Shown here piece after piece: positions 6,487-52,825 of a stretch of 64,000 nucleotides of DNA. The first letter of the stretch is position 1, and each line of letters begins with the position of its first letter. The stretch lies in assembly GCA_964016885.1 (NCBI GenBank), contig OZ024742.1, positions 101,432,001 through 101,496,000 of the forward strand, in the 5' to 3' direction. Source of the DNA: Eledone cirrhosa (taxonomy: Eukaryota). Under the pieces are notes generated by a model. The model saw only the letters and a list, made by a program, of their open reading frames with translations, did no database searches and was not told the origin of the DNA. Both the position numbers and the translations under genes were made by a program.

Positions 6487-6888
6487 ATATTAAATCATGT
6501 TTTTTCAGTACGTCCTCGTCAGATAAAATACATGAATTGATGTATGACATACCTCAACGGTCTTGATGGTTCAATTCCCGTATTGGCAGTTCAATTCCAG
6601 TATTGGCAGTTCAATTCCAGTACTGCCAATACTGGAATTGAACCATCAAGACCGTTGAGGTATGTCAATCATCAATTCATGTATTTTATCTGACGAGGAC
6701 GAACTGAAAAAACAGCACAGTACCTTCGAAATATATATAATAAAACATATATTTTGATTATGTGAATGTCTTCATTTATTAATATTCTGAATAATATTAA
6801 TAACTCCAGAAAACTTCTTTGTAGAGTGCTTTTAATCTATTGTAAAACTATATTCATTGAGTAATCAATGAACCATATTAATCTTTGG

Positions 6889-6937: not shown

Positions 6938-6938
<1 letters not shown>

Positions 6939-7212
6939 AGTTATGTAATAAACAACATAAGATAATTAATTCATTTACCAGTGGTTTCTTGAAGAGCTTG
7001 ACACTTATGTCCGTCTTCATTCATCAGAAAATTTTTTTAGAATAATAAAATATTTTTCTGATGAATGAAGACGGACATAAGTGTCAAGCTCTTCAAGAAA
7101 CCACTGGTAAATGAATTAATTATCTTATGTTGTTTATTACATAACTAAAAAGCTCTGTAGCCTACATAGAGCACTCTTTTTTCCTTTACCTTTCCTTCGG
7201 AAATACTTCATT
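6938..7212 (+). mobile_element. Penelope-like mini-element with perfect ~93-bp inverted repeat
   Basis: 6938-7031 is the reverse complement of 7054-7147; each arm contains a full hammerhead motif. Confidence 0.7.
7056..7111 (+). ncRNA. Type I hammerhead motif (mirror copy on - at ~6974-7029)
   Basis: CTGATGA-a-TGAAGA..GACAtaagTGTC..TCTTCA-a-GAAA-CCactGG-TA. Confidence 0.7.
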
Positions 7213-10362: not shown

Positions 10363-10975
10363 GAATAGGAAGAAACGAAGTTGATTTTAACCTGTTGACT
10401 TACACTTCTTGTTTTTAAATTACTCCGGAGTATACAGACCCACCTGCGCACTGCGTTGAGTGCTCTACCCTGCATACTGAAGTATCAGTAACTAACCAAC
10501 ACATGCTCACATTTATATATATATATATGAGTGTGTGTTTTTGCGAGTCTGTGGGAGTGGGGCTTTATATGTGTGCGTCTGTGAATGTGCTTGTAGACAC
10601 CTGACCAAAAGCACTGTTAGCTTAAGTGAACCATAAAAACGAGGAGTGGCACCCCCAGAGTGAACCTGTCTATAGAATTCTTTCTGCATTTGTTATTCTA
10701 AATATAGTTTTTTAAGAATTCCCTTTTCTTTAAACCCATCAACCAATGACCTCCACACATCCCAATTACCACCCTCTCCTACCACCAGAAAAGATATGAA
10801 TACCACCATATTACTTGGGCACCAGCTTCCTGATGATTTCTCTCGAATGAAACAGTTCTAGTCCTGTAGAAGCCTTTCTATATTAAATATTTATACTCTG
10901 CTTTGTATTGAGTACCTTACCTACTGTGGTTACCCCCGATTGAACCCGGGATAAACTTATATATATATATATATA

Positions 10976-11196
10976 TGATAATAATGGAGCTGCGGCGCTG
11001 CAAATGGGTTACATATGAAAAAGTTTGTCCTCATCAGTGGCCTTCCAACCGTCGTAGGCATTTCATCGCATTAAAGGCCATATACCTCAGGTTGGTGCGA
11101 GCAACGGCTAAAAAAAGTCGTTGGGACACGTAAATAAGGGGGACGCTAGGGTAAACAAACAAAATGGTTTAAGCAACAGAAAGTGATGAAGAAGAA
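10976..11196 (-). mobile_element. Short non-coding element (family R) in (TA)n carrying a rearranged hammerhead
   Basis: Homologous to 27704-27875 over the motif and the 3' tail TTCATATG.A.C.CAT..GCA.C..CGCAGC..CCATT. Confidence 0.65.
11031..11100 (-). ncRNA. Candidate non-circularly permuted (rearranged) hammerhead ribozyme, copy A
   Basis: UCGCA CCAACC UG AGGUA UA UGGCCUU UAA UGCGA U GAAA UGCCU ACGAC GGUUGG AAGGCCA CUGAUGA; four helices supported by covariation with copy B. Confidence 0.75.
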
Positions 11197-11218
11197 ATAT
11201 ATATATATATATATATAT

Positions 11219-11614
11219 GGAAAGTTATATTTAAATTGTTGGGTTACAACTAGTAAATATTTATAACTGATATAAAAGCACTCAACAAGTATTTGGAGTA
11301 TATTTACGATATTAAATAAATGGAAACTATATTTATAAAACCATATTTATTTCATTATATATATTTCAGGGATATCATATTAACAATATGTTATGCCTTC
11401 CTCAGACAAAATACAATATAGACAGTTTTTGCGAAATCAACTTTTTCAAATACAAGTCGATGTTGAACGGTATGTCAAATCTATTTATCTATAAAACTGT
11501 CTATATTGTATTTTGCCCGAGGAAGGCATAACATATTGTTAATATGATATCCCTGAAATATATATAATGAAATAAATATGGTTTTATAAATATAGTTTCC
11601 ATTTATTTAATATC

Positions 11615-11617
<3 letters not shown>
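11219..11617 (-). mobile_element. Penelope-like mini-element with ~125-bp inverted repeat
   Basis: 11305-11429 is the reverse complement of 11493-11617 (2 mismatches); flanked by (TA)n. Confidence 0.7.
11351..11410 (-). ncRNA. Type I hammerhead motif (mirror copy on + at 11512-11571 has CCGAGGA)
   Basis: TTTGT-CTGAGGA-AGG..CATATT gtt AATATG..CCT-GAAA-TATATA-TA-ATGAA. Confidence 0.7.
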
Positions 11618-11653
<36 letters not shown>

Positions 11654-12133: not shown

Positions 12134-12201
12134 TATATATATATATATATATATATAAATAACAGGAGGCTGGACTGGTGTAAATCCTTGAAAGGTTTAT
12201 T

Positions 12202-12259
12202 ATACTATGATCATTTCAATGACCGGGTTCCATATGAATCCGGTGATATCATCAGGTAT
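12202..12259 (-). ncRNA. Type I hammerhead motif, intact core, in PLE-like mini-element 12158-12478
   Basis: ATAC-CTGATGA-..ACCGGATTC atat GGAACCCGGT..-GAAA-TGATCA-TA-GTAT-AATAAA; palindromic stem III; 28-bp inverted repeat 12158-12185/12299-12326. Confidence 0.75.
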
Positions 12260-12475
12260 TCGAAATATAACAAAGGAATATGTAAAAACCATGGGTCCAT
12301 TTACACCAGTCCAACCTCCTGTTATTTTTATTTATAATTAACTCCGTATTCGCACGACCAACTACACAAACGAAGACGGGTGAACTGCACTACGTTGAGT
12401 ACTCTCTACAATATTACACCAAGATTGACCATACGGAATGACCAATTCTATCCGGTGGTTAACCAACAAACCTAA

Positions 12476-12551
<76 letters not shown>

Positions 12552-12557
<6 letters not shown>

Positions 12558-14868
12558 ATTATTATTATTCTTTGAGTCTCAGTCATTGATGTTATTTAAC
12601 TGGAAAGTTTGCTGAAATGAATATCAAGCCGCTACCTGCAGCCTCAGATATTCAGGTCGTATCGGAGGGTTCTTGCTGTTCCCAGCAAGCATGCCTTTTG
12701 AAGTGTTCCAAAAAGCGGGGCTGAACTAACTTTCTTTAACCATCCTTGGAAACTCTTTGAGGTAGTACCTAGTGCGCCTATGACAATCGGGACGACTCTG
12801 ACTTCATGGCAGTTCCAAATCCTTTTTACCTCCCACTGGTATCGCTTAATTTTCTCCCTCTCCTTTTCTTGCACTCTCGTGTCGAATGGGCAGGCTATAT
12901 CCACAATCAGGCACGATCTTTTTTCCTTCTCCAAAAACACCATGTCAGGCCTATTGTGTTCCAGTTTCTTATCCGTTTGTATCCTAAAATCCCATAGCAC
13001 CTTCACCTGATCGTTTTCTATCACCGACTCTGGCTTATGCTCATACCACTTCTCAGAATGTGGTAAATTGTTAACTTTGCATAGGTACCAGTGGATCACC
13101 CTGCCCATCACATAATGTCTGCAGCCTTTATAGTGAGTCTGGGCTAGGTGTTTACACTCGGATACAATGTGAGCCACAGTCTCCTCTCTCTCTCTCTCTC
13201 TCTACAGATCCTACACAGTGGGCTAGCCTCCTCCTTTTAAATATGGTGTTTCACCCACTTCGTTTTGAGTGCCTGCTCTTGCGCAGCCATTAGCATTCCT
13301 TCTGTAGCCTTTTTAAGGTCTCCTCTTTTTAACCAGTTCCATGTCTGTGGATCTCTAAATTCAGTTTTCTCAAAGAAGGTACTATGAAGGGATTTTTTAT
13401 GAAGGTTGCTCTTCCTCCTTGTTGTTATTTCCTCCTTGGACATCCCCTGGTCTATTGTTCTCTCCTTCAGTACAATTCTGAGCATTGGCTCCCTACTGTC
13501 GGTCACGTATTTGTACAGGTTGTTTTTCTCCATCTGAACACAGTCCTCTATGCTGATAAGACCTCTTCCACCTTCAGATCTCTTTAAGTAGAGTCTATCG
13601 ACATCCCTCCTCTTGTGGAACATGTTGTAGATAGTCAATAGCTTCCTAGTCTTCCTATCCATTTCTTTTTGTTCAGCAACATTCTATTTCAGAATTCCCG
13701 CACTGTACCTAATAATAGACACATCTTGGGAATTCACTGCAATTATGACATTCCTACTATTTAGACGTGGTTTTTATACGCTCCTTACTCTCCTAATGTA
13801 CTCAAATCTTATCAATTCCTTCATTTTTTTGTTCTTGATGTCATCTGCCTCCAGAACACTTAAATATTTGTATCCTTCTTCAGTGTCAATTTCCTTTATC
13901 ATCTCACCTGTTGGTACCTGTATTCCGTTGCTTCTGCTCAATTTACCCCTCTTCACCACTAGGACTCCACACTTATTAATACCAAATTGCATACATATAT
14001 CACTGCTGAAAATACGGACAGTGTCAACAAGTACATCTAACTTCTTCTCACTCTTCCCAAAGAGTTTAAGATCGTCCATGAAGAGGAGGTGGTTGATGGT
14101 AAGCTCTCCTTTTCCCAACTTGTATCCTGCTCTCACTTTTCGCAGTATAATGGTCAGGGGTATCAGGGCAAGGACAAACAACAGAGGGGACAGACTATCT
14201 CCCTGGAAGATACCTCTCTTGATCTTCACGTCTCCCAAGGATTCTCCACCCGATGTTAATTCTGTTTCCCAGGACTTCATACTTGTGCTCAACAACTGTC
14301 TGATGTTATCTGCCACCTTGAAGATCTCTAGGCTTTTGGTGATCCAAGAATGAGGTACCATGTCGAATGCCTTTTTGTAGTCTATCCATCCCATGGAAAG
14401 ACCAGTGTGTCACCTATTGCAAATCCTCATTACCATCTTATCAATAAGTAGCTGGTCTTTTGTACCACGGGACTTCGTTCGGCATCCTTTCTGTTCGTCC
14501 GGTTGTTTGTGTGGAGGTGATGGTAGATTTCCTCAGACACAATGCTTGTTAACAATTTCCATATTACGGATAGACATGTGATAGGTCTATAGTTGGTAAC
14601 ATCATTACCCTTGATTCGGTTTTTCATTACCAGGACTGTGGTACCTTTTGTCAACCACTCTGGTACCTCACCCGACATCAAGAAGTCATTGAACATGGTT
14701 GTTAGTTTCGGGTGGAGGGATATTATATTTTTAATCCAATACCCCTGCACACCATCTGGGCCTGGTGATTTCCAGTTGGTTAGTTTTCTGGCCTGCCCTT
14801 TAAGAGTTTCAACTGTGATACTTAAATCAGTTTGTTGGTGTGCTTGTTCACTAATCTCCTTTTGTACT
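12552..14868 (-). mobile_element. R4/Dong-clade LINE (RT+CCHC+RLE), 5'-truncated, frameshifted older copy
   Basis: KSPGPDG, DYKKAFD, GIFQGDSLSP, FMDD, RPDMV..DIACP in several ORF pieces; (TAA)n tail. Confidence 0.93.
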
Positions 14869-15843: not shown

Positions 15844-16656
15844 ATTATTATTATTATTATTATTATTATTGTTATTGTTATTCCTTGAATCTCAGTCATT
15901 GATGTTGGTTAACTGGAAAGTCCGTTGGATTGAATATCAAGCCACTACCTGCAGCCTCAGATATTCAGGACGTATCGGAGGGTTCTTGCCGTTCCAAGCA
16001 AGCATGCCTTTTGAAGCGTTCCAAAAAGCGTGAAGGGGCCGATTTTCTTTAACCATCCCTGGAAACCTTTGGAGATAGTCCCCAGTGCGCCTATGACAAT
16101 CGGGATCACTTTGACTTCATGGCAGTTCCAAATCCTTTTCACCTCCCACTTTAGGTCCTGGTATCGGTTAATTTTCTCCCTCTCCTTCTCTTGCACTCTC
16201 GTGTCGAACGGGCAGGCCACATCCACAATCAGGCACGATCTTTTTTCTTTGTCCACAACCACCAGGTCAGGTCTATTGTGTTCCAGTTTTTTGTCCGTCT
16301 GTATCCTAAAATCCCACAGCACCTTCACCTGACTGTTCTCCATCACCGCCTCTGGCCTATGCTCATACCATTTCTCAGAATGTGGTAGATTGTTTACTTT
16401 GCACAGGTGCCAGTGGATCACCCTGCCCATCACATCGTGTCTCCAGCCCTTATAGTGGGTCTGGGCTAGGTGTTTACACTCGGACACAATGTGAGCCACA
16501 GTCTCCTCTCTCTCTCCACAGATCCTGCACAGTGGGCTAGCCTCCTCCTTGTAGATATGGTGCTTCAACCACTTCGTTTTGAGGGCCTGCTCCTGCGCAG
16601 CCATTAGCATTCCTTCTGTAGCCTTTTTGAGGTCTCCTCTTCTCAACCAGTTCCAT

Positions 16657-16690
<34 letters not shown>
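15844..16690 (-). mobile_element. R4/Dong LINE, young 5'-truncated copy in (TAA)n
   Basis: CRIC..HIVSEC, RHD and RPDLVVVD motifs; nearly identical to 44230-45020; (TAA)n on both flanks. Confidence 0.95.
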
Positions 16691-16696
<6 letters not shown>

Positions 16697-16700
16697 CACA

Positions 16701-17120
16701 GGCGGTGGATTGGCAGCATTGGTCGAGTGTCGGATGCCATGCTTTGGCGCATAGAGTTACGGCCCTTGCCATTCTGAGTTCAAATCCCGCCGAGGTTAAC
16801 TTTGCCTTTCATCCTTACGGGGTCGATAAAATAAAGTACCAGTAATACACTGGTTAATTGCTGGCCTTGTTCCTAACGTAGAAACAATTATTATTATTAT
16901 TATTATTATTATTATTGTTGTTGTTGTTGTTGGATGGATAGGCAGTATCGGTAGAGGGTCGGACGCCATGCTTTGCAGCATAGAGTCACGTCTCTTTATG
17001 GTCTGAGTTCAAATCCTGCCGAGGTTAACTTTGCCTTTCATCCTTACGAGGTCGATAAAATAAAGTACCAGTCATGCACTGGAATAATTGCTGGCCTTGT
17101 GCCAAAAGTAGAAACAATTA
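16701..17120 (+). mobile_element. Two tandem family-B SINEs (16701-16890, ~16931-17120)
   Basis: GGCGGTGGATTGGCAG head, GAGTTCAAATCC B box, GCCTTTCATCCTTACGGGGTCGATAAAATAAAGTACCAG core, ATTATT tail. Confidence 0.85.
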
Positions 17121-17290
17121 TTGTTGTCATTGTTGTTGTTGTTAGTAGTTGTAGTAGTACAGATTAAAGTTTAAGCAAAAAACAAATATTTGCTCTACGG
17201 TTTTATATATACTTTTTTATTATATATTTATATATACAATCCTTATCGAGCCCTCTTCGGATTTTGGATTTGGGTCTTCGTTATTATTAT

Positions 17291-21252
<3,962 letters not shown>

Positions 21253-23230
21253 CTAGAAGTTTAGCCCGGCGTTGCTCGGGTTTGTTCATTTGCTATGAAA
21301 AGTTACAAACAGGTAAACGTAGCTTGAAAGCGCATAAGGTTATCAATTAAGTGCATAAAGCAGTTGAACCGGTTATTAATAGTTACGAACCAATTAGCCT
21401 TTTGGACAATCAATGATGGGTTAATAATCTTCCAATAGCGAATTTAGTAGACTAAAGTTGCAACATGGTGGCCCTGATGCCGCTGGGTGTCAGATCTGTC
21501 CGCTATGGGTGACCCTACCAGTTTTCCAGACGACATAGCTCCAACACCTCCAACACCTGCACCAACATCTATAGCACCTCTTTGTAGACGATATTGCGTG
21601 TCATCCCTTGAGGAGTGTAAGCAAAAAGTCCATTCCTGCTCCCTACGCGGGAACAGGCAACATAAAGTTGGCCATGGGAGAAGCATGGCTCTCCCAAATG
21701 GATGCCCTCCACCGACAATGTTTTCCCTTGTGACTTGTTAATGGACATGGCAAAACATGGTCTCACCGGAAATTGGGATCGCCGGAAATCGAACGGGATA
21801 TCTGACGCCGAGAGGAAAGGTTTATCCTTGGAATGAAAACATTCTCCCCTCTCCCACACCCCGTTACAATGGTGGCCTCAATTAAGTGGGGCGTCAGTGA
21901 CTTGACGACCATGCGAGTACCGTTGCACTGCTTTGGTGGACGCAAGTTCCTTATTAGCATAATGGGACAGTGACCCTAAGCTTAAGAATGTGAGGTGGGA
22001 GCACTGGGGGCTCAAGGTAATTTAATAACTCAACCGGATAATTAACGATATCGTCGGGGTCTGACGTCCGGTCGATAGATTTGAAGATGTGTTCTTTACT
22101 GGAATTTTCTCAATCAGCTGCTCGTTAATAAAATTAACCATGGTATTTTTCGGAGCAAGGATGGCTCTTTCGCTGAGCCAATCGAGGTTTTTAAAGTTAG
22201 ATGAGACATTAGGAAAAACTGCTTCCCAAAGGTCAGAAGGGCTGCTCACAATGTTGCACAGGGAGTCGATTTCTATGCCACCCTTGTCACTCGCAGGGAT
22301 CTTGCCCTCACCAAGCGACAGAGAGAGTAAAGCAGTTAAATTATAGAGAGGGGGAATATACGGGACGCTCCATTTGATCATATACATTGTTTCTCTCTCT
22401 GCAGTGTTGTCATATAGGGAGTGAAGAGCGACAGAGAGAGTATAGCAGTTAAATTATAGAGAGGGGGAATATACGGAATGTTCCATTTGATCATATACAT
22501 TGTTTCTCTCTATGTAGTGTTGTCATATAGGGAGTGAAGATCGACAGAGCGAGTATGTCGTTATGACTGTTTGTTGTTGTATAAAATGATGTGTTGCTTA
22601 GTTATCAAAGTTTTTTTCGCGTTCCCGAACGAATAGGGGGAATGATCTATTATATATAGAGAGAAGAGCGACGGATAGAGTGAAGCTAGTGTTAAACCTC
22701 GAAGCACGAAGAGAGTAAAGCAGTTAAATTATAGAGAGGGGAAATAATCTATTGTAGAGAGAGGGAAGAGCGACGGAGAGAGTAAAGCTATGGTTGTTGT
22801 GTTGCTTAGGTTTCAAAGTTTGTGTCGCGTTCCTTCAAAAGAAGTTTTGTCGTTGTTCTAAATTGTGATAGAGTAGTAGACGGAGGCAGTAACCTTTTAA
22901 AGAGAGTTGCAGAGGAGATTGAGAGTGGAGTAGAGGAAAGGATGAACTTTTTAAAGAGAGTTGCAACATGTATGTAGTTTCATATATTTTTTATGGTAGT
23001 AGTGAGAGGAATGAAGCGTGTAAGAGAGAGGGTTACAGCATGTATTTAGTTTTATCGATTTTTTTTCATAGAAGCAGGAAATGTTTGGCAAAAATAATTA
23101 CGCGTTGACCTGCCCTGGTAAATTTGGAGCACATTGGAAAAAAAATCATCAAAATCGGTAGAGAAATATGGAAATGCATAAAAATCATACACACACACAC
23201 AGACAGACATCTACCGTTATATATTTATAT
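21253..23230 (-). mobile_element. Second Helitron copy, internally deleted, head-to-tail with the first
   Basis: Same 3' end CTAG..GCCCGGCGTTGCTCGGG and same 5' end; helicase C-terminus only. Confidence 0.92.
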
Positions 23231-27603: not shown

Positions 27604-27708
<105 letters not shown>

Positions 27709-27782
27709 AAAATGGCGTGCTGCGTTGTTGCGGATGTGATCCATATGAATTAAAATATAGAGTAAGAAACCAGGACTATCCG

Positions 27783-27852
27783 TCATCAGTGATCTTCTGG
27801 CCATCATAGGTATTTCTTCGCATTAAAGATCATATACCTCAGGCCAGCGCGA
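27783..27852 (-). ncRNA. Candidate rearranged hammerhead ribozyme, copy B (in family R element 27704-27875)
   Basis: UCGCG CUGGCC UG AGGUA UA UGAUCUU UAA UGCGA A GAAA UACCU AUGAU GGCCAG AAGAUCA CUGAUGA. Confidence 0.75.
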
Positions 27853-28114
27853 GCAATAACTAAATAAAGTTATTATATATATAGATATATATAACTGGCA
27901 GTGAATCTAAAACCCAGCTCTTACAGTCAGTTAAGTTAAAACATCTGCAATTCATGACTTCTAATGGTTCAGAGGGGATTGTAAAAGTTTAAGTACAGCA
28001 ATTTAATGAGATATATGTCTTTAAGGGGGGGGAGGGGGAGCATTATTAACCGTTCGTCAGAAGACTGCCACCCTACTCTTGCCCTAATGTGTCGTCCACC
28101 TCGTGGTCACGGCC

Positions 28115-28780
28115 GACAGGATGAAGAAAACATTGCTCTGGAGGACGGCGAGGATGACTCCACATCGTGGGGCTCGCACTTGCGGGTTGTCAGCTCTGCT
28201 CTGATAGTAATGAGTAGGGATGTGGTCCGGGTGAGCCAATAACGGTGGAAGTCTCCACTGCTATAGGCTCAACCACAAACCCATCAGAGAGCGGTCGATA
28301 CTTTGACAGTTTGCGCTATTCGGCCTGGCGAACGTACGTTACGAATGGACGACAAAATGATTTTTACTTATTTTTGAACAGTTGATGTCAAATTGTCTTA
28401 ACAATTGTTTTAACGGGGTCCCGCATGCTGGCCTCCCCACAGCTCCGGTGGACAGGATGGAGAAGGCGTTTTCCCGGAGGATAGTAAGGGAGATGCGCTG
28501 GAAGAGCCATTCCAATTCGCGAGGCCCACACCTGCGGCTGGCCAGCTCAGCGCCTATGGTGGTGAATAGGGAGGTAGCCCTAGGGCCAAGTACACCAGAA
28601 GTCTCCACTGCCAAGGGCACGACCGTGAATCTGTCGGAGAGCGACCAGTACTTGGAGAATTTGGCCTCCTCAGTCCGACGTGCAGCAGTACCTGGGTTAG
28701 TCGCAGACGGCTCTTCCAGCGCATCTCCTTTACTATCCTCCGGGGAAACGCCTTCTCCATCCTGTCCGCCGGGACCCCAT
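28115..28780 (-). mobile_element. Two tandem CRE-clade 3' fragments plus an inverted duplicate
   Basis: EEAKFSKY..VPLAVETSGVLGP..WLFQRISLTILRENAFSIL (28400-28708); RKLSKY..EPIAVETS (28115-28335). Confidence 0.75.
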
Positions 28781-29215
28781 TTGCTCACTATACGGATTAA
28801 TAGGCAAAGTTATAAACTATTGTTTCTACCGGTTGGAAGTCGGTGTTACAGTTCTATGGCTTTCAGTTTTCACGAGATGTATTAGTATTGTTTTAACAAT
28901 TGTCTTAACTCGGGCCGCAACTCATTGTATCTTACACTCTTACCGGCTACATAGTCTCTTCCGTGTATATACAGCAAAGCTTCTAATTAAAAAACGGTAG
29001 TTGTATCGACTTTACGTTTATCTTAGGTAGATATAACTCTGTGTGTGTGGAATTGACATATAGTAGGAAGCTAGATGGGTCATGTTCGTTCTGGTTTAGT
29101 TTCATGTTTCACTGTTGTATGTTCAAATACTGCTGGAACAGATATTTGTGCATGCGCACACATGCACACACACTTATATGTGTGTGTGTGTGAATAAATA
29201 GATAAATAAATAACT

Positions 29216-30831: not shown

Positions 30832-31020
30832 GGTGGATTGGCAGTATCGGTAGAGGGTCGGACGCCATGGTTTGACGCATAGAGTTATGGCCCTTTCCAA
30901 TCTGAATTCAAATCCCACCGAGGTTAACTTTGCCTGTCATCCTTACGGGGTCAATAAAATAAAGTACCAGTAATGCACTGGGTAATGGCTAGCCTTGTGC
31001 CAAAAGCAGAAACAATTATT
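30832..31020 (+). mobile_element. SINE family B
   Basis: Near-consensus copy. Confidence 0.85.
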
Positions 31021-31348
31021 TTAAGATGGTTTATGTATGTGTACATATTACTGTGTTCTATTATTTCATTTGAAGTAATAAATATTGATTAATTGATTGA
31101 CACACACACACACATATATATGCTTAGAATTGATGGTTGCGTAAATGAGTACTCAATACAATAGTAGAGATTAATATATTCTTTATCAAAGCCAAGTTTG
31201 AGTCTTGTTACCCTGGAGTTTCTCCTGTATGGACCGAGGCGACAGCAAGGAAATCAGGCGCCTTTGTCCACGTTTTTCCGACTCCATGTCACTTTCCCAA
31301 ATTTTATCAACTTTTATTCATAGTGATCGACAATTAATATGAGACGCA

Positions 31349-36825: not shown

Positions 36826-39800
36826 TTCTTTATTAGCCACAAGGGGACAAATACAAATGGGGAGTTTACATACAGGTATATGAAAATAAAACTATTAATA
36901 AAATAACAATTGCAATCCTCAATAGGGAGGGGGGGCGTTACACAGGGGTTGTACACACCCCGAAAAAATGTACAACCCTCATCTTCAGGAGCACCAAGAG
37001 TGAGTACTCCTTTCCTCTCTTCCTCTTTTTCCTCAACCGACAGGCTTATATAGAGAGAAGGCCCAACCACTCGGGCTATCTTTGCCACATTCACCCACCT
37101 TTTATAAAATTTGCTGGGGTACAGCACCTCTCTCTCTATCCTGATTCTTCTTCGAAAATGATATTTGAAAAAACGAATCAGTTGTTCGCCAGAGAAAAAG
37201 GTGTCTGACCTCAGCCCTTTTAACCTCGTCCACCGTATAACCTCTTTCACCATAGCCATAACACATAGGAAAACCGCCTCTCTCTCGTTTTTGAAGGAGG
37301 GTGGTGGTTTGATAATGACAATGGACTCGGTGGTCAACTGCATTGGTCCCACCCGCGACAATAGTCGTTCTACATAGCCCCACAGGTCGGTAACGCCCGA
37401 GCAGTGTACAAATGCGTGCGCGACGGTTTATTCGTTGCGCACGCATCTCGGACAGATCTTTTTCGAAGGGTCCCTGCCCGGGCGCCCGTGTCTGTAGAGT
37501 TTGTCTCGAACTGGTAGATCTCCTCGGTAGCACTGCCAGGCCAGGGACTTTTGGAAGTTGTCCATCGGTCCCGGGCGGAAGGTCCTACCGAACAGACTGG
37601 CCAGTTCGTCCTCCTCTACGCCTAGAGTTTCTCTGAGCGCGTCGTCGCACTTGCTGCGGACCAACCCTCTATAGAATGACGAAGTGGAGTCTCCACTGAT
37701 CGCCGGGTCCGTTTGCCAGAGGATTGTGAGCGCCTGAGCACATTCGATGTGCCAGTCGCCCATTTTCCTCGGTCTTTGCTTGACCCAGGACTGCAGCTCG
37801 GTCAGCGAGACGAGTCGTGGGAAGGCTCGCCTCACGAACGGGGCCCACACCGATTGTCCGGTGAGGTATACGTGGAGATGCCGCAGCCTGAGCGCGTGTT
37901 TGCGCATCGTCAGCCACGGCATCACCAGCCCTCCGTTGGAAGGGTGTTGGCAGCAGATGGATCTTCTCACCAAAGGAGCCCGTTTCTTCCAGAGGAATTG
38001 GAAGAGCGCGCGCTCCATTTTGGTGAGTGTTTTGGCTGGACAAGGCACGACGGTCTAGCGGTAGTAGATGACGGACGCTATAAAAGTGTTCGCCATCTCC
38101 GCTCGACCTTTCAAGGAAAGTTTGCACTCAGCCCACTTCTGGGTGAGCGCAAACACCTTGGCCGTCACCTCGTTCCAGTTCTTCTCTACCTGGAGGTCCG
38201 GACCAAACCAGACCCCAAGCAGCTTTACCGGTCCTTCCGTCCAGCGTCCGACGACGCCATCGGAAAGCATCGGTTTGCCTCTCCACGTTCCGAGTTACAA
38301 ACCGATGGATTTGTCCCGGTTCAGCTTCGCTCCTGTGAAACTTTCGTATTCCTCCAGTAAGGTGCCAACCTCCCCGATTTGTGAGGTGCTCGATACTATT
38401 ACTGTCATGTCGTCGGCGTAGGCCGACATCGTTTTTCGCAGTCCCGGTTCCAAAGGGATGCCCTGTAATAGCTCCAACTTCCGCAGTAGTGGCTCGAGAG
38501 TCAGTACGTACAGAAGGGAGGAGAGAGGGCATCCCTGTCGGATGGATCGCGTGATATGGAACGGCTCCGAGAGGTAGCCGTTCACCTTGAGCAGATGTTG
38601 CTGTTATGCATTGCAGCAATCCAGCTCCTGAACACGGATCCGAAGCCTGCCGCCTCGAGCACCGCATCCAGGTATCGATGGTCAACCCTATCGAAAACCT
38701 TAGACTGATCCAAGTTGATCAGGGCCCCACCGAAGCCGGGTTTACACCCTACCCTCTCTATGATGTATCGCATGAGGTGGAGGTTGTCGTGTATGGACCT
38801 GGTCGGGATTGCGCATGTCTGCGCTTCTCCCACCAGGTTTTCGACGACAAGCGCCAGCCTCTTTGCCAACACCTTGGCCAAATTCTGTAACTCTGTGTTT
38901 AGCAGAGTTATGGGCCGGAAGTTGCCTATGTCATCCTCCTTATTCTCGTCCTTCCTGACTAACGTGATTACGCCCTTGGTCACAGAACTGGGAATTCTCC
39001 TGTTCTGCTGCCAGTTGCAGTAAACCGCTTCCATTAGACCGGAGAACAAGTCCGGCATTGCTACGTAAAATTCGTAGGGTAGACCGTCGAAACCTGGAGA
39101 TTTGCGTTTGCCGCATTGGCTCAGCGCGTCCCCTATCTCAGCGGCCGAAATCGGCCTTTCGCAGAACTTCGCCTCGCCGTCCGAGAGTCGCGGCAGGCCG
39201 TCGAGGTATGGACTGAAATCCATAGCCCCTCCCGGCGCGGCGCCCTGCCCGAACAGTTGAGCAAAGTGCCGCTGAAAGGCCGCGCACATCTGCTTCGGCT
39301 CACGTATCACGCGTCCGTCTTGGTCCTTCAAAGACCGAATCGTGGACTTGTTGCCACTTTTCGCCTCCGTCACTCGGGCCCCGTCGTTTCCCAGAGCACA
39401 TATTTTGCTCCTGACAACGCAGCCTTCGCGCTTTGCGTCGAAGAACTGGTCCAAGGCCGTTCTCGTCGCTAGCACGCTGGCTACGTTGCCACTCCTAAGT
39501 GCCTCTTCTACTTTATCTACCAGTTCCTTTTCGGTCTTATTTTTATCTAACAATAATTCTTTACTAAAACCTATCGAGTCTAATCTAACTACCCTCTTGA
39601 GAGAGTACGACCATCTGTTGTTGACAATGGCCCCTGTCAAGTTCTGCTTAACTAAAGTGCTAATCCGTCTACTGTAGGCTTTGCATGTCGGTAACGACAA
39701 GTTCAGCTTCCAGTAGCCGGGTCCCTGTCTATGGGTTCTATCAAGGTTGACTAAGCAGGTCACTAGTTTGTAATCTGAATAGGCAACCATGAACATTTGT

Positions 39801-41826
39801 GGACAGCTTAACATGTCCCTATCACTAACTCTAACTAGAAATCTATCTAGGTACGATCTAGATGTTCCGCTATGGTTGGTCTACGTCCACAGTGACACAG
39901 TTGGAAAATCTAGTCGATATCTATCGGCCGATTAGCTGTTTGAGGCTGTTACAGCCCCCTCTATCGGGACATGCTCCCACATAGTCCCAGCGTGCATCTA
40001 GGATTCCATTCCAGTCTCCCACTAATAGCAGGGAGCGGGACGTTCCCAGAAAAGTCTCTAGACGTTTGAAGAAGTCTGGCCGCGGTGTCCCGGATGGGGC
40101 ATATGCGGCCACCAGCCTGAAGGCTCCACCTTCACTGCCGTCAACGTACCGTCTGTGTTACGAGGTCCAGGTGCTTCCGCAGCAAAACGGCAACCTCGCC
40201 CCCACCTCCCGGCTGACAGTGAGATGCGTAGTTCTCAAAGTCGTCGAAGATGGGGGCCAGTTGTCGCTCGCTGTGGATCCTGGACTCGCAAATGGCTACT
40301 ACATCCACACTGTGCGACCTGAGGTCGTTTAAGAGTTTGCCCTATTTCCAGGGCATCCCCAGGCCGCGTACATTCACACATCCAACTCTTATATTGGCCA
40401 TGTTGGTGCTGAAAAATTAAAAGAAGAGGAAAAGAAATCACTCACCTCTTCGTCTCCTGGGGACCAGGCTGCACAATTTCCATGGGGGTGTTGGAGGGGT
40501 TGTTTGGTGGGGTGGTGTTTCTGACGGGTGGGGATGGAGATGTTTGGTGGGGAGGGGGTGTCTGGTAGGATGGGGGTGTCTTGGGTGGGGGTGGGGAAAC
40601 ATTTTAACAGGACTCGATTGTAGGGTTTGACGCAGGGGTTACCTACGTCGTTAGGAATTTTTTCTTTTAACTATTTATGCGTGTCCATGGAGATCCTAAT
40701 CATTTTAAGATTAGGATTCTCCGAAGAGTATGTAAAAGTTTTCCCTTCGGTCTCCACCGAAGGGTTTTGATATATGGCGTCTGTTAAAGTTTTATTGTTA
40801 GTATTTATGTAGGTGTAACATTTTTGTTGTGTTGTGTTGCTTTTTGTCTGTGGTTCTTGTGTGTGTTTACGTTTTGTAGTAGGTGTTTTGTTTTCAGGAG
40901 GGGGTGTTTTTGTTTGTGCTGTTTGCGTCGCTTGTGTTGGTGTTTGTGTGTTTGTTGCATCTTTGTTTGTGTTATGTCTTTTCTTTTTTCTTTTTACTGG
41001 TCGGAAAGGCTCTCTCTCATCGTCACTGGGTGACGATGATGAAGCCTCATCCGTGTTGTTGGGGAGGGGTACATTTTGGGGAGCTGTTATGTGTGTGGGT
41101 GTTTCTGGAGTTGTTTTAGGTGGGGAGGGGTTGGGTGGGACTGTTTGTCGTTTGTTTTGTTGTCACTATTTTGTTATGTTGATGTTGTTGTGGTGGTGGT
41201 GGTGATTGTTGTGCTGGTGTTGCAGGTGTTGGCAGTAGTACCTTTTTTTTTGCTAGTTAGCCGAGGACAGGAAGCTCTCAGGTGACCCCTGCTTATGCAG
41301 TGGTAACTTGAGGGCCGCCTACCATCGACCGAAATGTTTATGTCCACCCAGCATCACACGTTCCGGGATCCTAGCTATTCGTTCTGGTGTCATTTGGACC
41401 AGAACTTCCAGCCTAGTTCCGCTGAACAGGTCGCCGGAAGACTTATCTACCGATATTATTGAGTCTTTTTCGAGGTTTAAAAATCCACATAGTACCCACC
41501 AAATATCAATATTTGGTGTGGTACTTTGGATTTTTATTTTCTGTGTTCTTTTCCCCATGTAAGTGGGGAAAAAGGTGAACAGCGGTGACACAATTGGCGA
41601 CACAGAATATTTCTGTGCCGTCAATTGGTCTTTCATTAGAATGGATAAACTCCCGTAGAGTCTACCCTTCTGAATAAAAACAATGTCTTTTAATGCATTT
41701 TTTAAAGCCAACTCAATTTCGCCTTGTGAAAGTTGAGTCGGTTTTCGGGTTTTGTTTGAGACTGTCCTGAAAATCACAGTTTTCAATGCAGCTTCTCTTC
41801 GCAAATCTGGAGGAGAGTTTATGGAG
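36826..41826 (-). mobile_element. Near full-length, decayed Tx1/L1-clade LINE
   Basis: ORF1 with zinc-knuckle remnant (YHCISRGHLRASCP); ORF2 from 40401: VNVRGLG, GDWN, SDYK (APE), KSPGFDG, RPITLLN, IRQGCPLS, YADD, CPRC; AATAAAG plus (ATCT)n tail. Confidence 0.93.
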
Positions 41827-41881: not shown

Positions 41882-44800
41882 TCGCCTGATTTTGGCACTC
41901 TTTGCTACAATGCGTTGCTTCAATTCCTCTATGATAATATTTAGCTTTTTACTCCTAGTTTTGTATTTTATTTCCAGTCTATTTTTAGTGCCTATGTTTT
42001 TTAGTGTCCCATTCAGTAGTGACTCAAGCTTTCCTATGTCATTTCTCATTTCCCCGATTTGCCCACTCAGTCGCTTCTTCCACCACGGCTCTGCTCTTTC
42101 TTGTCTGTTGTTTCCTCTCGCTTTTATACCAAGTAGTTTCCTCACCGTATTTGCTGTTGCTTTGAGGATATTGTTGCACTGGTGAAGACTCCTCGCCTCA
42201 AGGTATGGGATGACTTTGTTTACCTTAGCTGTTGTTTCTTTTAACTTTTTCCTGTCTACAAATCTTAGGTTCATAGGTCTCCCACTATCATTGTTCAACT
42301 CATCTACCACTAAATTTAGGATGTCAACCGAATCTTGTCCTAGCCCGTCAGCATTCATCTCCTCAGTGGCCGTATCTCTGTTCCAGGTATTATTTATCTC
42401 AGTATTCAGATCATTGTCTGCTTCGGGTGGTTCCTCCGCTCTCAGGGCCTCCTCACCTTCATTTCCCGCCGGCTCGCTTGTCTGGCATACTACACCCGCC
42501 ATCTCCAAGCCATTCTCTCTGCTCAGTTCCTCCAGTTCCAGCTCGCTTATCCACCCATTAGTTCTTATTACCCGAGCCTGCCCGGCCAATTTTTGTTCAT
42601 CTAATTTAAATAAACCAATCTCGTTCCAGATGTTATGCATCCGTCTCCTGTAGCCCCTCTCCTTGGGGTTACTTTTCAGGTAGCATTGCATAACAGTTCT
42701 ATTCAATTCTTTCGTCCAGTTGGTTCTGGCCCCTTTCCTTCTTCTTCTTCCTCCAACATCAGCAGTATTTCGTTGACAGTCAGGTTCCTGCTGCTGAGCC
42801 AGGGGGCACCTGTTGGGTGAGAGTCTGTCACATGACGTTCTAGTCTCCCTCCACCCGAAGCTGACGGCCATGTTCAATGACTGCTTGGTGTCGGGTGAGG
42901 TGCCAGAGTGGTTGACAAAAGGTACCACAGTTCTGATAATGAAAGACCAAATCAAGGGTAATGATGTTACCAACTATAGACCTATCACATGTCTGCCCGT
43001 AATGTGGAAACTGTTGACGAGCATTGTGTCTGAGGAAATCTACCATCACCTCCACACAAACAACTTGTTGCCGGACGAACAGAAAGGATGCCGAAAGAAG
43101 TCACGTGGTACAAAGGACCAGTTGCTTATTGATAAGATGGTAATGGGGAATTGCAGGAGGAGACACACTGATCTTGCCATGGGATGGATAGACTACAGAA
43201 AGGCATTTGACATGGTGCCTCATTCCTGGATCACCAAAAGCCTGGAGATCTTCAGGGTGGCAGATAACATCAGACAGTTGCTGGGCAGGAGTATGGGGTC
43301 CTGGGAGACAGAGTTGACATCAACTGGAGTATCCTTGGGAAGCGTGAAGATCAAGAGAGGTATCTTCCAGGGAGATAGCCTGTCCCCTCTGTTGTTTGTC
43401 CTTGCCCTGATGCCCTTGACCATTATGCTGCGAAAAGTGAGAGCAGGATACAAGTTGGGAAGGGGAGAGCTTACCATCAATCACCTCCTCTTCATGGACG
43501 ATCTTAAGCTCTTCGGGAAAAGTGAGAAGGAGTTGGATGTGCTTGTTGACACTGTCCGTATTTTCAGCAGTGATATATGTATGCAGTTTGGTATTGGTAA
43601 ATGTGGAGTCATTGTGATGAGGAGGGGTAGGTTGAGCAGAAGTAACGGGATCCAGATACCAACAGGTGAGATGATAAAGGAAATTGACTCTGAGGAAGGA
43701 TACAAGTATTTGGGCGTTCTGGAGGCTGATGGCATAAAGAACAAAAAAATGAAGGAATTGTTAAGAACTGAATACATTCGGAGAGTAAGGAGCGTATTGA
43801 AGTCACATCTGAACAGCAGAAATGCCATAAGCGCAGTAAATTCCCGAGCTGTGTCTATTATTAGGTACAGTGCGGGAATTCTGAGATGGAATGTTGCTGA
43901 ACAAAAAGAAATGGATAGGAAGACTAGGAAGCTATTGACTATCTACAACATGTTCCACAAGAGGAGTGATGTCGATAGACTCTACCTAAGGAGATCTGAG
44001 GGTGGAAGAGGTCTTATCAGCATAGAGGACTGTGTTCAGATGGAGAAAAACAACCTATACAAATACGTGACCTATAGTAAGGAGCCAATGCTCAGAGCTG
44101 TACTGAAGGAGGGGACAGTAGGCCAGGGGATACCCAAGGAGGAAATAACATCAAGGAGGAAGAGCAGCCTTAAGGGAAAATCCCTTCATAGTACCTTCTT
44201 TGAGAAAACTGAATTTAGAGATCCACAGACATGGAACTGGTTGAGAAGAGGAGACCTCAAAAAGGCTACAGAAGGAATGCTAATGGCTGCGCAGGAGCAG
44301 GCCCTCAAAACGAAGTGGTTGAAGCACCATATCTACAAGGAGGAGGCTAGCCCACTGTGCAGGATCTGTGGAGAGAGAGAGGAGACTGTGGCTCACATTG
44401 TGTCCGAGTGTAAACACCTAGCCCAGACCCACTATAAGGGCTGGAGACACGATGTGATGGGCAGGGTGATCCACTGGCACCTGTGCAAAGTAAACAACCT
44501 ACCACATTCTGAGAAATGGTATGAGCATAGGCCAGAGGCGGTGATGGAGAACAATCAGGTGAAGGTGCTGTGGGATTTTAGGATACAGACGGACAAAAAA
44601 CTGGAACACAATAGACCTGACCTGGTGGTTGTGGACAAAGAAAAAAGATCGTGCCTGATTGTGGATGTGGCCTGCCCGTTCGACACGAGAGTGCAAGAGA
44701 AGGAGAGGGAGAAAATTAACCGATACCAGGACCTAAAGTGGGAGGTGAAAAGGATTTGGAACTGCCATGAAGTCAAAGTGATCCCGATTGTCATAGGCGC

Positions 44801-45016
44801 ACTGGGGACTATCTCCAAAGGTTTCCAGGGATGGTTAAAGAAAATCGGCCCCTTCACGCTTTTTGGAACGCTTCAAAAGGCATGCTTGCTTGGAACGGCA
44901 AGAACCCTCCGATACGTCCTGAATATCTGAGGCTGCAGGTAGTGGCTTGATATTCAATCCAACGGACTTTCCAGTTAACCAACATCAATGACTGAGATTC
45001 AAGGAATAACAATAAC

Positions 45017-46925: not shown

Positions 46926-48443
46926 AAAAAATATTAAAAATATTAAAAATATTAAAAAATAGATAGATAGATAGATAGATAGGAAAAGTAAAGTTTTACA
47001 GAATACGCATTTAAGTTTAACAGAAGAGAAATCCTAGTCCTAGTAGAGAGCCACAATATAGCACTGTCCCGTTACATTGAAAGTGGCATCATGGTTGGAC
47101 AAATCTCAGTAAGCTTTTCTTGAGTTCAGTGTCTGGCATTGAATCTGTGGAGACCACGAAACTGGAATAGTAGTAAGCTGTGCTGATGTGTCTCACCAAT
47201 CAGTCTATACGAAATCCTAGCTGCATGTAGAACGGTCGGGCGGTCGTACTACAGGATAAACACATTGCTTCCTATCAGAAAAAAAATATATAAATGAAAT
47301 AAAATATACAAACTCAACAGGGGGTTATGAAATGTTACGTTTCAACAGAAGAACGAATAGGATGGATTACTGGAATGGGACAATCGGACAGAAGAACTAG
47401 GTCTGATAATCAGACAGAAACTTCGATCTGATGATTTGGAAGAAGAAAACTGACTATCCTAGTGAACAGCAGAGGCCTTCTTACAGAAAAGGTGGGTATT
47501 AATTTATTTTATAAAACGTGTACGAACTGGGAAAGCGCAAAAGAATGAGAGAAAGAGAGAGTGACAGAGAGAGAAAGTGTTTCTGTGAATACGTGAAAGT
47601 GATTTTTAGTGTTGTTTTGTATATTTCACTATTTCTAGTGAGAATACTAGAACATTACTTAATGAAATAGATTTTGGTGTGTAAGCATGCTTAAACTCGT
47701 TGTTTAAATATTTGCACGCACGCAACTGAATATATATATGTATATATGTATATATATGCGCGCGTGTGTGTGTGTAAACAACAAATGAGGGATATTTACA
47801 TATTTATAGTATACAATAATGAAAGTATTTTTAAAAAATTAAATAATAAACAAGAAGAGAAAAATAGAACAAAGAGAGAGAAAGAAATTTTTTAACACCC
47901 CCCGCCCCTCCAATCATTGCCTCCCCAGTTCTGGTCTCAATAGAAAGCATCCAGTCCACTCTGTAAAGTGGTAGTGCTGGTGTCACAACAAAAAGCACCT
48001 AGACTGCACAGTAAGGGGGTAATGCTGGTGCCTTACCAAAATACACCCAGTCTACACTATGGCAGTAATACAAGTCAAGATAAAATGCTCCCTGTACACT
48101 CTGTAAAGTGATTGGTGTTAGAAAAGGCATCCAGCCATAGAAACCAAGATGTAGTCACCTGACCTGTCTAACCACAGTATGTGACAGCCTGGCTAACCTG
48201 TGCATGGAAAATAGATGTTAAATGGCGATGGTGATAATGATGAAGGTGAAAGTGGAGGGGGGAAACTGTGCCCCAGCGACAAAATGGTGAAAGTATTTCT
48301 TTGAAGAACAGCCAGCGACCCCCCACTGCATAGACTATTCCACATCACAGAGCTCCTTCTTCCTGATTTTGCAGAGAAAAATTGAAGTCCGTAGGCAGGA
48401 AAACTCTAAATGGAAAGAGCTGGAAGCTTTCTGCAAGACACTA

Positions 48444-49572: not shown

Positions 49573-49934
49573 CAGCATTTCTCAACCTTTTTACACTTGT
49601 GGGACCCTTGAAATAGTTTTCATGTCTCAGGGAACCCCTGCATAACAATTATTATATACCATTATTAATATCTAAAAGCCGTAATTCTATGCGTCGACGC
49701 CATGCGTTGACGCATAGAATTACGGCCCTTGCCATTCTGAGTTCAAATCCCGCCGAGGTTAACTTTGCCTTTCATCCTTACGGGGTCGATAAAATAAAGT
49801 ACCAGTAATACACTGAGTAATTGCTGGCCTTGTGCCAAAAGTAGAAACAATTATTAATATCTAAAAGCATTAGCATATTTATCAGTTTCTTGTGGAATTC
49901 TAGGGTTCCAGGGAACATCGGTTAAGAAACGCTG
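49573..49934. mobile_element. hAT (Charlie/MER5-like) MITE containing a family-B SINE
   Basis: TIRs CAGCATTTCTCAACC / GGTTAAGAAACGCTG; 8-bp TSD ttctagtg; SINE TSD attattaatatctaaaagc at 49661 and 49850. Confidence 0.85.
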
Positions 49935-50062
49935 TTCTAGTGTGTTTTATGAAAGATGTGTAAAGGCTGTGAGATTGATGAAGTTGTTGTTTTTCATCCC
50001 TGCATTGTACCCAATGTTTTGGGTCATTATAGTCAATAAAAGAAATCATTATTATTTATCTA

Positions 50063-50255
50063 GGGCGGTGGATTGGCGGCAGTGTCGGTAGAGGGTCGGA
50101 CGCCATGCTTTGACGCATAGAGTTACGGTCCTTGCCATTCGGAGTTCAAATCCTGCCGAAGTTAACTTTGCCTTTCATCCTTACGGGGTCGATAAAATAA
50201 AGTACCAGTAATACACTGGGTATTTGCTGGCCTTGTGCCAAAAGTAGAAACAATT
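50063..50255 (+). mobile_element. Full-length family-B SINE
   Basis: 15-bp TSD attattatttatcta at 50048-50062 and 50253-50267. Confidence 0.9.
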
Positions 50256-51300
50256 ATTATTTATCTATTTGTTTATTTCTGTAACTATGTGTTGTTTGAT
50301 GTGTCCGTGCATTAAGTATATGTGTATCAGATAATTTTGATCATTAATCAAAACATCTTACTAATATTTGAAGAAAATATTTAAAGATGGGTTTGTTAAT
50401 TCAAATGTTTATCGTATCTTTACTAGTGAGCTGATTATTGCGAACATTAGCAGTATTAGAGTAGAGAATTTAATTTTCAAAGTGATGCAGTCATAGTACT
50501 TTTCAAAAATGTCTTGCTAATGTGGTTTCATGTGGAATAGGATATTAAGAGTTACCGTATATACTTGAATATAAGACAAGGAATTGGACGAGTCAGCTTA
50601 TATTTCAGTATATACGATAATAATTTGAAACTGTGTTTTAAATTTTCAGAAAGTAAAACTAATTAATACTTTCAAATGCGAACAAATTAAATATTCATAC
50701 ATTTTATGAGCAAACAAAATATATTTATGCACTTCAAATCCAGTCCAAAATAAATGAGGTCATGTAGGTGTCATGACAAAAAAACACACAGTCCACGCTG
50801 TAATGTGGCCGTGTAGGTTACACCGTAAAAACCTCCCAGTCTACAGCCGTAGAAAACCCACCAGACAGTCCTATACGAGCAAGACAACCAATCTTGCCTC
50901 AAGTGGGAAAATTCCCGTCCAAACCCATGCTAGCGTGGAAGATAGACGTTAAACGATGATGATGATGATGATGAAATGTAAACAAAATATATTTATGTAC
51001 AAAATAATAAGTACTGTAGTTGTAAATCTCTTAATTCAAATCAGTTTCTCATTAAAAAAAAATTCTTATTTTAAATAAATTCTGAATCATGAAGGTTCAA
51101 AAAGTCTAGAGTTTTTAAGGCATAATAAAAACGTTAGATGTGGGGAGGGTGTCATTTAAAAAATCTAACTTTTTTTGTTATATTTTTTAATGTTTTCACA
51201 TTTTGGGACTGGCTTATAATCATGTTTCATGTACTTTATACAGTATCATGTGTTGTAGACATTAGAATTTATATAATTTTAGCTAAATCAGAGAGGTTAA

Positions 51301-52059: not shown

Positions 52060-52785
52060 TGTTGTATAAAGCACCTTGCTCTTTATCATTTGAGTTCAAA
52101 TCCTACTGAAGTCAACTTTACCTTCCATCTTTCCGACGTTCATAAAATAAAGTACCAGTCAATTACTGGGTTTGATTTAACTAACTATACTTCTCACTAC
52201 CAAAAGAAAAAAAAAAATTTTTTTGGTCTTGTTAGAAGGCATTATTTTTTATCCCGCCGAGGTTGACTTTGCCTTTCATCCTTACGGGGTCGATAAAATA
52301 AAGTACCAGTAATGCACTGGGTAATTGCTGGCCTTGTGCCTAAAGTAGAAACAATTATTTTTTGTAATTTTAGGGCGGTGGATTGGCAATATCGGTAGAG
52401 CGTCGGACCCCATGCTTTGCAGCAAAGAGTTACGGCCCTTTATGGTCTGAGTTCAAATCCCACCGAGGTTAACTTTGTCTTTCATCCTTACGGGGTCGAT
52501 AAAATAAAGTACCAGTAATGCACTGAGTAATTGCTGGCCTTGTGCCAAAAGTAGAAACAATTATTTTTTGTAATTTTAGGATTAGCAGAAATAGTAGAGA
52601 AGTGGATAAGTTGCTATTGCAGTATTTGTTCTGGCTCTTAACATTCTGTGTTCAAATCTTGCTGTGGTCAACTTTGCCTTTCATCATTCTGTGGTTGATA
52701 AAGTCCTGATTACATATTGGGGCTGATATAATTGACTTTCCCTTTCCCCAAATTGCTGGTCTTGTGATAATGTTAGAAAAAATTA
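52060..52785 (+). mobile_element. Four tandem family-B SINEs
   Basis: Repeated core GCCTTTCATC..GATAAA; 21-bp TSD attattttttgtaattttagg at 52354 and 52560. Confidence 0.85.
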
Positions 52786-52825
52786 TTTTCTTTATTTTCA
52801 CCTTTCTTCATATATTTATTTCTAG

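Follow-up and report, generated by a model that had tools for sequence, protein, structure and literature searches.

Two truncated elements in the octopod Eledone cirrhosa suggest a split, rearranged hammerhead fold at the 3' ends of Naiad-type Penelope-like elements

What kind of mobile element leaves behind short, non-coding remnants that are enclosed by microsatellites and carry the conserved nucleotides of a hammerhead ribozyme in a rearranged order? This question is raised by two related elements, E1 and E2, in a 64,000-nucleotide stretch of the genome of Eledone cirrhosa (assembly GCA_964016885.1, contig OZ024742.1, positions 101,432,001 to 101,496,000 of the forward strand), referred to here as the window. 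Both lie on the minus strand, E1 at 10976-11196 (221 nt) and E2 at 27704-27875 (172 nt). They suggest an unrecognised rearranged hammerhead at the 3' ends of Naiads, a clade of Penelope-like elements (PLEs), and we consider it likely, for the reading as a whole, that both are truncated Naiad-type 3' ends with a split, non-circularly permuted hammerhead. Published work is drawn on here in excerpts, both for the papers cited and for the Naiad consensus sequences.

A predicted split hammerhead core in E1 and E2

Every conserved hammerhead nucleotide is in register on the minus strand of both copies, with positions numbered by the hammerhead convention. C3 U4 G5 A6 N7 G8 A9 directly follow a stem I strand, and G12 A13 A14 are followed by the pair A15.1-U16.1 and stem III. 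Stem I (7-8 bp) immediately precedes CUGAUGA and immediately follows the UH of the cleavage site, while stem III (6 bp) begins immediately after GAA and H17 is an A. From 5' to 3' the blocks read cleavage site (S), GAAA (G) and CUGAUGA (C), which the descriptor used for scanning assigns to the cyclic order S-G-C. A canonical type I, II or III hammerhead was rejected for both elements, as stem II is not formed in sequence order and the descriptor assigns SGC. The bases following A9 are not paired with those preceding GAAA, and the partner of stem II, a 5-bp helix, lies about 60 nt upstream. CUGAUGA is therefore split from its stem II strand, and the two are not contiguous as they are in type-SGC and type-CSG ribozymes.

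Three further helices complete the model. One strand of helix X (6 bp) follows the displaced stem II strand and the other precedes stem I, and by its position this helix corresponds to the stem I-II interaction helix. Upstream of the displaced stem II strand stands a 7-bp hairpin, H, plus, in E1, a 5-nt strand whose partner is the run of five bases adjoining A9 on its 3' side (helix E); E and H together bridge A9 to position 10.1. The modelled 5'-to-3' order would be E strand, H, II strand, X strand, III/UH cut/I, 3-nt linker, II/GAAA/III, X strand, I/CUGAUGA and E strand. The fold would correspond to a type-CSG ring broken open at the A9/10.1 junction. The RNA ends would exit by an additional arm, E plus H, and this arm would hold A9 beside stem II. 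Judged by the modelled pairings, the conserved core of E1 and E2 is very probably a non-circularly permuted hammerhead fold. Its parts are as follows.

10976-11196, minus strand: E1 remnant, with the complete predicted split-core hammerhead fold
11129-11196, minus strand: E1, U-rich upstream stretch of the 3' untranslated region (UTR), absent from E2
11124-11128, minus strand: E1, 5' strand of helix E, pairing with 11026-11030 directly after A9 (5/5 pairs; pair probability 0.54-1.0)
11102-11123, minus strand: E1, hairpin H, 7 bp with one A-C mismatch, joining helix E to 10.1 (two pairs changed on both sides relative to E2)
11096-11101, minus strand: E1, position 10.1 (C, 11101) and the displaced stem II strand, pairing with 11066-11070
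11090-11095, minus strand: E1, 5' strand of helix X, pairing with 11045-11050 (3 of 6 pairs changed on both sides)
11074-11087, minus strand: E1, block S, with stem III strand 11082-11087, A17 at 11081 and stem I strand 11074-11080
between 11081 and 11080, minus strand: E1, predicted cut, triplet AUA
11056-11070, minus strand: E1, block G, with stem II strand 11066-11070, 11.1 = U at 11065, GAAA 11064-11061 and stem III strand to 11056
11026-11050, minus strand: E1, 3' strand of helix X 11045-11050, stem I strand 11038-11044, CUGAUGA 11037-11031 and 3' strand of helix E 11026-11030
10976-11019, minus strand: E1, conserved 3' tail
27704-27875, minus strand: E2 remnant, truncated at the 5' base of hairpin H, helix E unable to form
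27854-27875, minus strand: E2, hairpin H (7/7 pairs)
27783-27853, minus strand: E2 core, with 10.1 = C at 27853, stem II strand 27848-27852, helix X 27842-27847 and stem III 27834-27839
between 27833 and 27832, minus strand: E2 core, predicted cut, followed by stem I 27826-27832, 11.1 = A at 27817, GAAA 27816-27813 and CUGAUGA 27789-27783
27704-27749, minus strand: E2, conserved 3' tail

The comparison of the two copies and a set of controls carry this model. The split-core descriptor found only E1 and E2 in the window (score 25 each). Across 60 locally shuffled windows, scanned on both strands, it returned two loci (scores 20 and 21), and no locus in SGC order with a stem I of at least 7 and a stem III of at least 6. 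Helices H, II, X, III and I form 30 of 31 pairs in E1 and all 31 in E2; seven pairs are changed on both sides between the copies (compensatory) and three on one side. When the same 22 substitutions were placed at random, all 31 pairs were kept in 80 of 200,000 trials, and sliding the partners by 1-3 columns lowered the pairing from 94% to 28-51%. Where only one side of a pair is changed in stem II or III, a G-U pair results on the minus strand, which favours that strand. Chance grouping of short motifs, in an ordinary repeat that happens to occur twice, would agree with the presence of only two sequences in the window and with the lack of any Rfam hammerhead match at E up to 1: the 49 window matches at that level include no ribozyme and none at E1 or E2, although the same search also misses five type I motifs. 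It is opposed by the shuffle, covariation and permutation controls, by the seven compensatory changes and by the independent Naiad examples described below, and its probability is practically negligible. HDV-like (hepatitis delta virus), pistol and box C/D readings were compared with their general consensus features only, and none of them fits.

Extent, flanks and truncation of the two elements

The extents given for both elements by the initial annotation were borne out. When each element was compared with the whole window by blastn, E1 and E2 were each other's single significant partner (78% identity over 88 nt, E about 1e-15), and 71 of 93 nt are identical in their ungapped common core. No third copy was found in the 64-kb window, neither by nhmmer nor by the split-core descriptor scan; a covariance model run on the window with filters off gave 140 bits for the two training copies and at most 18 bits for its other 27 matches. 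The shared 3' tail that had been reported is real, with a local alignment score of 44 that none of 20,000 shuffles reaches and a best unrelated score of 36 among 3456 window slices, but the spacing quoted before its CCATT has to be corrected from 2 nt to 1 nt (E1) or 3 nt (E2). Neither tail folds stably (z +1.1 and +0.2). The conserved 8-mer at their start (11010-11021 and 27740-27751) can pair across the cleavage site, weakly (-4.3 and -5.5 kcal/mol), and such pairing is a possible, weak off-switch. Bridging of the core by pairing between the upstream flank and the GCA-containing tail was considered and rejected, since the bases needed for it form hairpin H, which covaries and recurs in Naiads.

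All four element ends abut dinucleotide runs, where the initial annotation had named (TA)n or (GA)n beside the 3' tail. Outside the runs themselves, a mere 1.9% of positions are as close as 10 nt to one; CCATT itself stands about 7 nt from the microsatellite in both elements.

10958-10975: (TA)n at the 3' end of E1
11197-11218: (TA)n bordering E1 on its 5' side and at the same time forming the 3' end of an adjacent type I hammerhead element
27607-27705: (AT)n followed by (AG)n, a compound microsatellite bordering E2 on its 3' side
27874-27893: TA-rich run at the 5' end of E2, including (TA)5 at 27874-27883

A Naiad-like bias toward insertion in (TA)n is thus seen at E1 and E2, with (AG)n before (AT)n on the 3' side of E2. 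The 3' end is common to both elements and their 5' ends differ by 73 nt.

The description of the elements as lacking open reading frames (ORFs) broadly holds: short stop-to-stop frames do overlap both, and among the frames searched no Pfam match falls inside either. Of the 133 frames listed, 52 around both loci were searched; 50 have no Pfam match, and the other two have weak, unrelated matches below the cut-off and outside E1 and E2. A fragment at 28159-28809 on the minus strand, partly duplicated and with no Pfam match, presumably resembles the C-terminal endonuclease region of CRE-type non-LTR (long terminal repeat) elements. Its part at 28339-28809 upstream of E2, similar to a restriction-like endonuclease, was rejected as a piece of E2, since it lies about 460 nt off, shows no sign of continuity and has no Pfam match. 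Searches elsewhere gave no relatives of the E1 core in phages, six short matches of the E2 core in plasmids (chance level) and no match of a 27-letter pattern in bacterial and archaeal genomes; a promoter and terminator scan near E1 remained at chance level, and no tRNA genes were found.

Short elements without coding signal could also form a non-autonomous family, SINE-like (short interspersed element) or retrozyme-like, that is moved by a Naiad reverse transcriptase, has defined ends and possibly passes through a circular RNA stage. MRC1 is a known non-autonomous PLE derivative (PMC8557442), and retrozymes are derivatives of pseudo-LTRs (pLTRs); non-LTR retrozymes are likewise short, non-coding, hammerhead-bearing and derived from PLE ends (bioRxiv 10.64898/2026.07.22.740005). 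In the passages available, however, what defines a retrozyme is a tandem series of units carrying type I hammerheads (bioRxiv 10.64898/2026.07.22.740005), whereas E1 and E2 are solitary and have a permuted core: neither locus contains a tandem repeat or a tandem or inverted pLTR-type arrangement, and each has a single ribozyme motif. The retrozyme-like element offered as one option by the initial annotation is not upheld by this arrangement. The 73-nt difference between the 5' ends, with E2 ending inside the fold, is what random truncation is expected to produce, and a non-autonomous family is in our judgement improbable.

Naiad 3' ends and known hammerheads

Truncated PLE ends of the Naiad kind agree better with published features of that clade. 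Naiads prefer (TA)n, are reported to lack a canonical hammerhead ribozyme (HHR), occur as remnants in cephalopods and leave abundant short 3' ends, and some of them carry matches labelled 'HHR_core' or 'HHR_half_core' that fit no descriptor and are left unexplained in the passages available (PMC8557442). The listed target of Naiad_Obim and Naiad_Ovul is (TA)n (PMC8557442). Since Naiad_Ovul and Naiad_Esco are listed as 'no pLTR' (PMC8557442), the pLTR is not universal among Naiads.

The file of Naiad consensus sequences was examined by text search, which misses matches broken by line ends, and pairings were parsed by eye, not computed; this holds for all Naiad folds and likenesses below. The places covered were 19 with CTGATGA and 30 of the 91 with other core spellings. 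The full E-H-II-X-S-G-X-C-E order was seen at seven of the 19, in three near-identical Acropora entries, in Naiad_Obim and Naiad_Ovul (near-identical to each other) and in two unassigned entries. Two others, the first file entry and Naiad_Esco, show the split fold in part, and two are contiguous type-CSG hammerheads, complete and with linkers resembling that of CSG-1, in the entries preceding the Naiad_Hcon and Naiad_Hpol headers (nematode by table order); one place is ambiguous and seven lack such a fold. The other spellings added one more complete split fold (Clytia by position, a hydrozoan) and one SGC-like fold, which brings the total to eight clear split-fold entries in five unrelated sequence groups. 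In the clear cases helix E starts directly after A9, hairpin H ends at G10.1 or one base short of it, and the 10.1-11.1 pair is G-C, with helix sequences that are wholly different between groups.

The linker between stems I and II varies among the Naiad examples in sequence and in length (1-5 nt), which bears on another proposal, namely a rearranged twister ribozyme whose cleavage site would be the UAA linker that separates these stems. Compared with the alignment by eye, the stretch of stem I, UAA and stem II does resemble twister block A. The would-be P2 partner is not followed by GA and a pseudoknot strand, block B is absent and Rfam returned no twister match, which together with the variable linker leaves this proposal only a very slight chance.

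There is support for the initial annotation's other option, 5'-truncated ends of a Penelope-like lineage; the split architecture shared with Naiad 3' UTRs and the (TA)n target narrow it to the Naiad clade. E1 and E2 are quite likely, on this comparative analysis, what 5' truncation has left of the 3' ends of an old Naiad-type family in the genome of an octopod, and the carrier is then a known kind of element. They share with Naiad_Obim and Naiad_Ovul the (TA)n target, short 3' ends, cephalopod remnants, a split fold near the 3' end and a U-rich loop of hairpin H (PMC8557442). They differ from them in that 10.1-11.1 is mismatched and no ORF is attached; because their helix sequences and tail also differ, E1 and E2 belong to a separate family. 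Absence of the Naiad ORF, which encodes an N-terminal GIY-YIG domain, a CxC motif and a reverse transcriptase, is expected for truncated copies.

Type-SGC and type-CSG ribozymes are non-circularly permuted hammerheads with S-G-C cyclic order (PMC10085705). E1 and E2 agree with them in cyclic block order, in the shortness of the linker joining stems I and II and in having an additional helix beside these stems, and their helix neighbours are those of CSG-1, as read from the CSG-1 oligonucleotides (PMC10085705). In the published types (PMC10085705) CUGAnGA is joined to its stem II strand, whereas in E1 and E2 the chain is opened there and bridged by E plus H. The CUGAnGA block is assumed to tolerate no interruption by more than 1-2 nt, and the published examples were obtained from metatranscriptomes, soil DNA and a single bacterium; the parts of that paper covered here make no connection to retrotransposons (PMC10085705). 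For Naiads the available parts of the clade's description give no canonical hammerhead and mark only core or half-core matches (PMC8557442). Among titles and abstracts of Creative Commons papers in PubMed Central (PMC) and of bioRxiv preprints, nothing tied permuted hammerheads to Naiads or described a split CUGAUGA block, and no paper dealt with A9 and G10.1 together.

The minimal type I hammerheads of PLEs also place their core near the PLE 3' end and tolerate an extra nucleotide at 9/10.1 (PMC4209133). Those hammerheads have the order C-G-S and a stem III that is weak and palindromic, and dimers are believed to be their active form (PMC4209133). E1 and E2 are pseudoknotted, their 6-bp stem III is not palindromic, and activity as a monomer would be possible. 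Five minimal type I hammerheads with palindromic stem III occur in the window, with C3 at 6690 and 57361 on the plus strand and at 35021, 12255 and 11405 on the minus strand; these are the motifs missed by Rfam. Three of them lie in inverted repeats (6498-6714, 11299-11623 and 12148-12336), as is often the case at PLE ends, those at 6690 and 11405 belong to elements that are 68% alike over 191 nt, and 10.1-11.1 is G-C in one of the five. Across 11197-11405, the type I element at 11405 on the minus strand runs directly into the 5' (TA)n of E1, so that two PLE-type ends share one TA tract.

The remainder of the window is rich in other repeats. A non-LTR retrotransposon with RVT_1 and zf-RVT domains is present in three copies that are 88-99.8% alike (42798-44930 on the plus strand, 12551-14720 and 15844-16658), along with Helitron-like PIF1 helicase fragments (17424-19628 and 21243-22453), an LTR-type reverse transcriptase/RNase H fragment (59013-60128, plus strand) and a second LINE (long interspersed element) reverse transcriptase fragment (38582-39880, minus strand). 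Long, near-perfect inverted repeats at 6938-7147 and 58421-58600, resembling miniature inverted-repeat transposable elements, give sub-threshold microRNA matches. A multi-copy family of short interspersed repeats is 85-97% alike (16683-17158, 30832-31022, 49696-50301 and 52251-52584), and a 48-bp tandem array at 54881-57066 contains 45.5 copies with 96% matches, with a related stretch at 47934-48148. A carbohydrate sulfotransferase ORF at 52777-53850 (plus strand) points to an octopod host, with 79% identity to a protein of Octopus vulgaris and 61% to one of Argonauta hians.

Predicted cleavage and its meaning

Several observations count against the interpretation given here. The structure was drawn from the same two sequences on which it was scored, so the pair statistics are inflated and lean in its favour. 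Helix E is seen in one of the two copies, which leaves no covariation for it in the window. When pseudoknots are disallowed, the energy minimum of E1 is a competing, rod-like fold (-28 kcal/mol, z -1.5), and pair probabilities in E1 are about 0.1 for helices H, X and III and 0.01 for stem I, by a method that cannot form pseudoknots; folding z-scores of the plus strand are as good as or better than those of the minus strand. Position 10.1-11.1 is C-U in E1 and C-A in E2, while G10.1-C11.1 is described as highly conserved (PMC4209133). In the passages available on 9/10.1, single-nucleotide insertions are the only ones documented, with no tested case of a whole arm. On the side of the carrier, no remnant of a reverse transcriptase or GIY-YIG domain was found by Pfam beside either element among the 52 flanking frames, and the Naiad assignment is based on RNA architecture, position near the 3' end, target site and octopod host, not on a linked ORF. 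The sequence of E1 and E2 differs from every cephalopod Naiad 3' end compared. The 3' ends displayed for Naiad_Mmer, Naiad_Adux, Naiad-1_Skow and the entries preceding the Naiad_Esco and Naiad-2_Pfla headers showed no CUGANGA fold, so the split motif is not universal in Naiads.

A branch between A9 and 10.1 is plausible since an extra nucleotide is accepted there in chrysanthemum chlorotic mottle viroid (PMC3705267) and in metazoan PLE hammerheads (PMC4209133); the available passages of Perreault 2011 (PMC3088659) contain nothing on position 10.1. The AUA triplet of E1 is a natural hammerhead triplet (PMC1636495).

Following established PLE behaviour, an old Naiad-type family would have been copied from its 3' end by target-primed reverse transcription into nicked (TA)n tracts, with most copies stopping early. 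Reverse transcription would have stopped after about 220 nt in E1, keeping the whole fold, and after about 170 nt in E2, losing the helix E strand. An intact element would be cut after the UH triplet, 105-129 nt from its 3' end, and in pLTR-ORF-pLTR tandems this cleavage would trim read-through transcripts to unit length, a role that has been hypothesised for PLE hammerheads (PMC8557442). From the modelled fold we predict with reasonable confidence that intact family members self-cleave after the UH triplet. Weak cleavage by E1 may occur, though the model makes us lean slightly away from it, and E2 probably does not cleave, RNA processing being unlikely there because the 5' strand of the bridging helix is missing. 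Both copies in the window are probably inert remnants. As integrated copies keep an uncut 3' end, cleavage is probably slow, conditional or protein-assisted; the hammerhead of the Anolis Poseidon element needs the element's protein, its uncut RNA is the main insertion substrate, and ribozyme mutants insert normally (PMC11167929).

The same Anolis results and the uncut 3' ends of integrated copies would also fit a hammerhead descendant that no longer cleaves and whose fold is kept as a 3' recognition signal for the Naiad reverse transcriptase. The mismatch at 10.1-11.1 and the split CUGAUGA block, for which no tested precedent was found in the literature consulted, point the same way. Nevertheless both copies keep the core nucleotides in register, as do Naiads from several phyla whose helix sequences are entirely different. 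A core that is kept while its helices diverge is the pattern expected from selection on catalysis, and we regard a purely non-cleaving signal as unlikely.

A cleaving, split hammerhead at Naiad 3' ends would reach beyond this locus. On balance we favour, from the modelled folds, the view that Naiads carry active, non-circularly permuted hammerheads that descriptors have missed: a contiguous type CSG in nematodes and, in cnidarians, cephalopods and others, a split, four-arm form outside the six block orders, which may represent an intermediate of permutation by tandem duplication of PLE ends. As a hypothesis, type-CSG ribozymes from soil DNA may derive from nematode Naiads. The model specifies the cut site and all six helices with single-nucleotide precision. 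If the model is true, the unexplained 'half-core' matches of Naiads would be accounted for, the assumption that CUGAnGA is contiguous with stem II would be broken, and non-circularly permuted hammerheads would be placed in animal chromosomes at high copy number.
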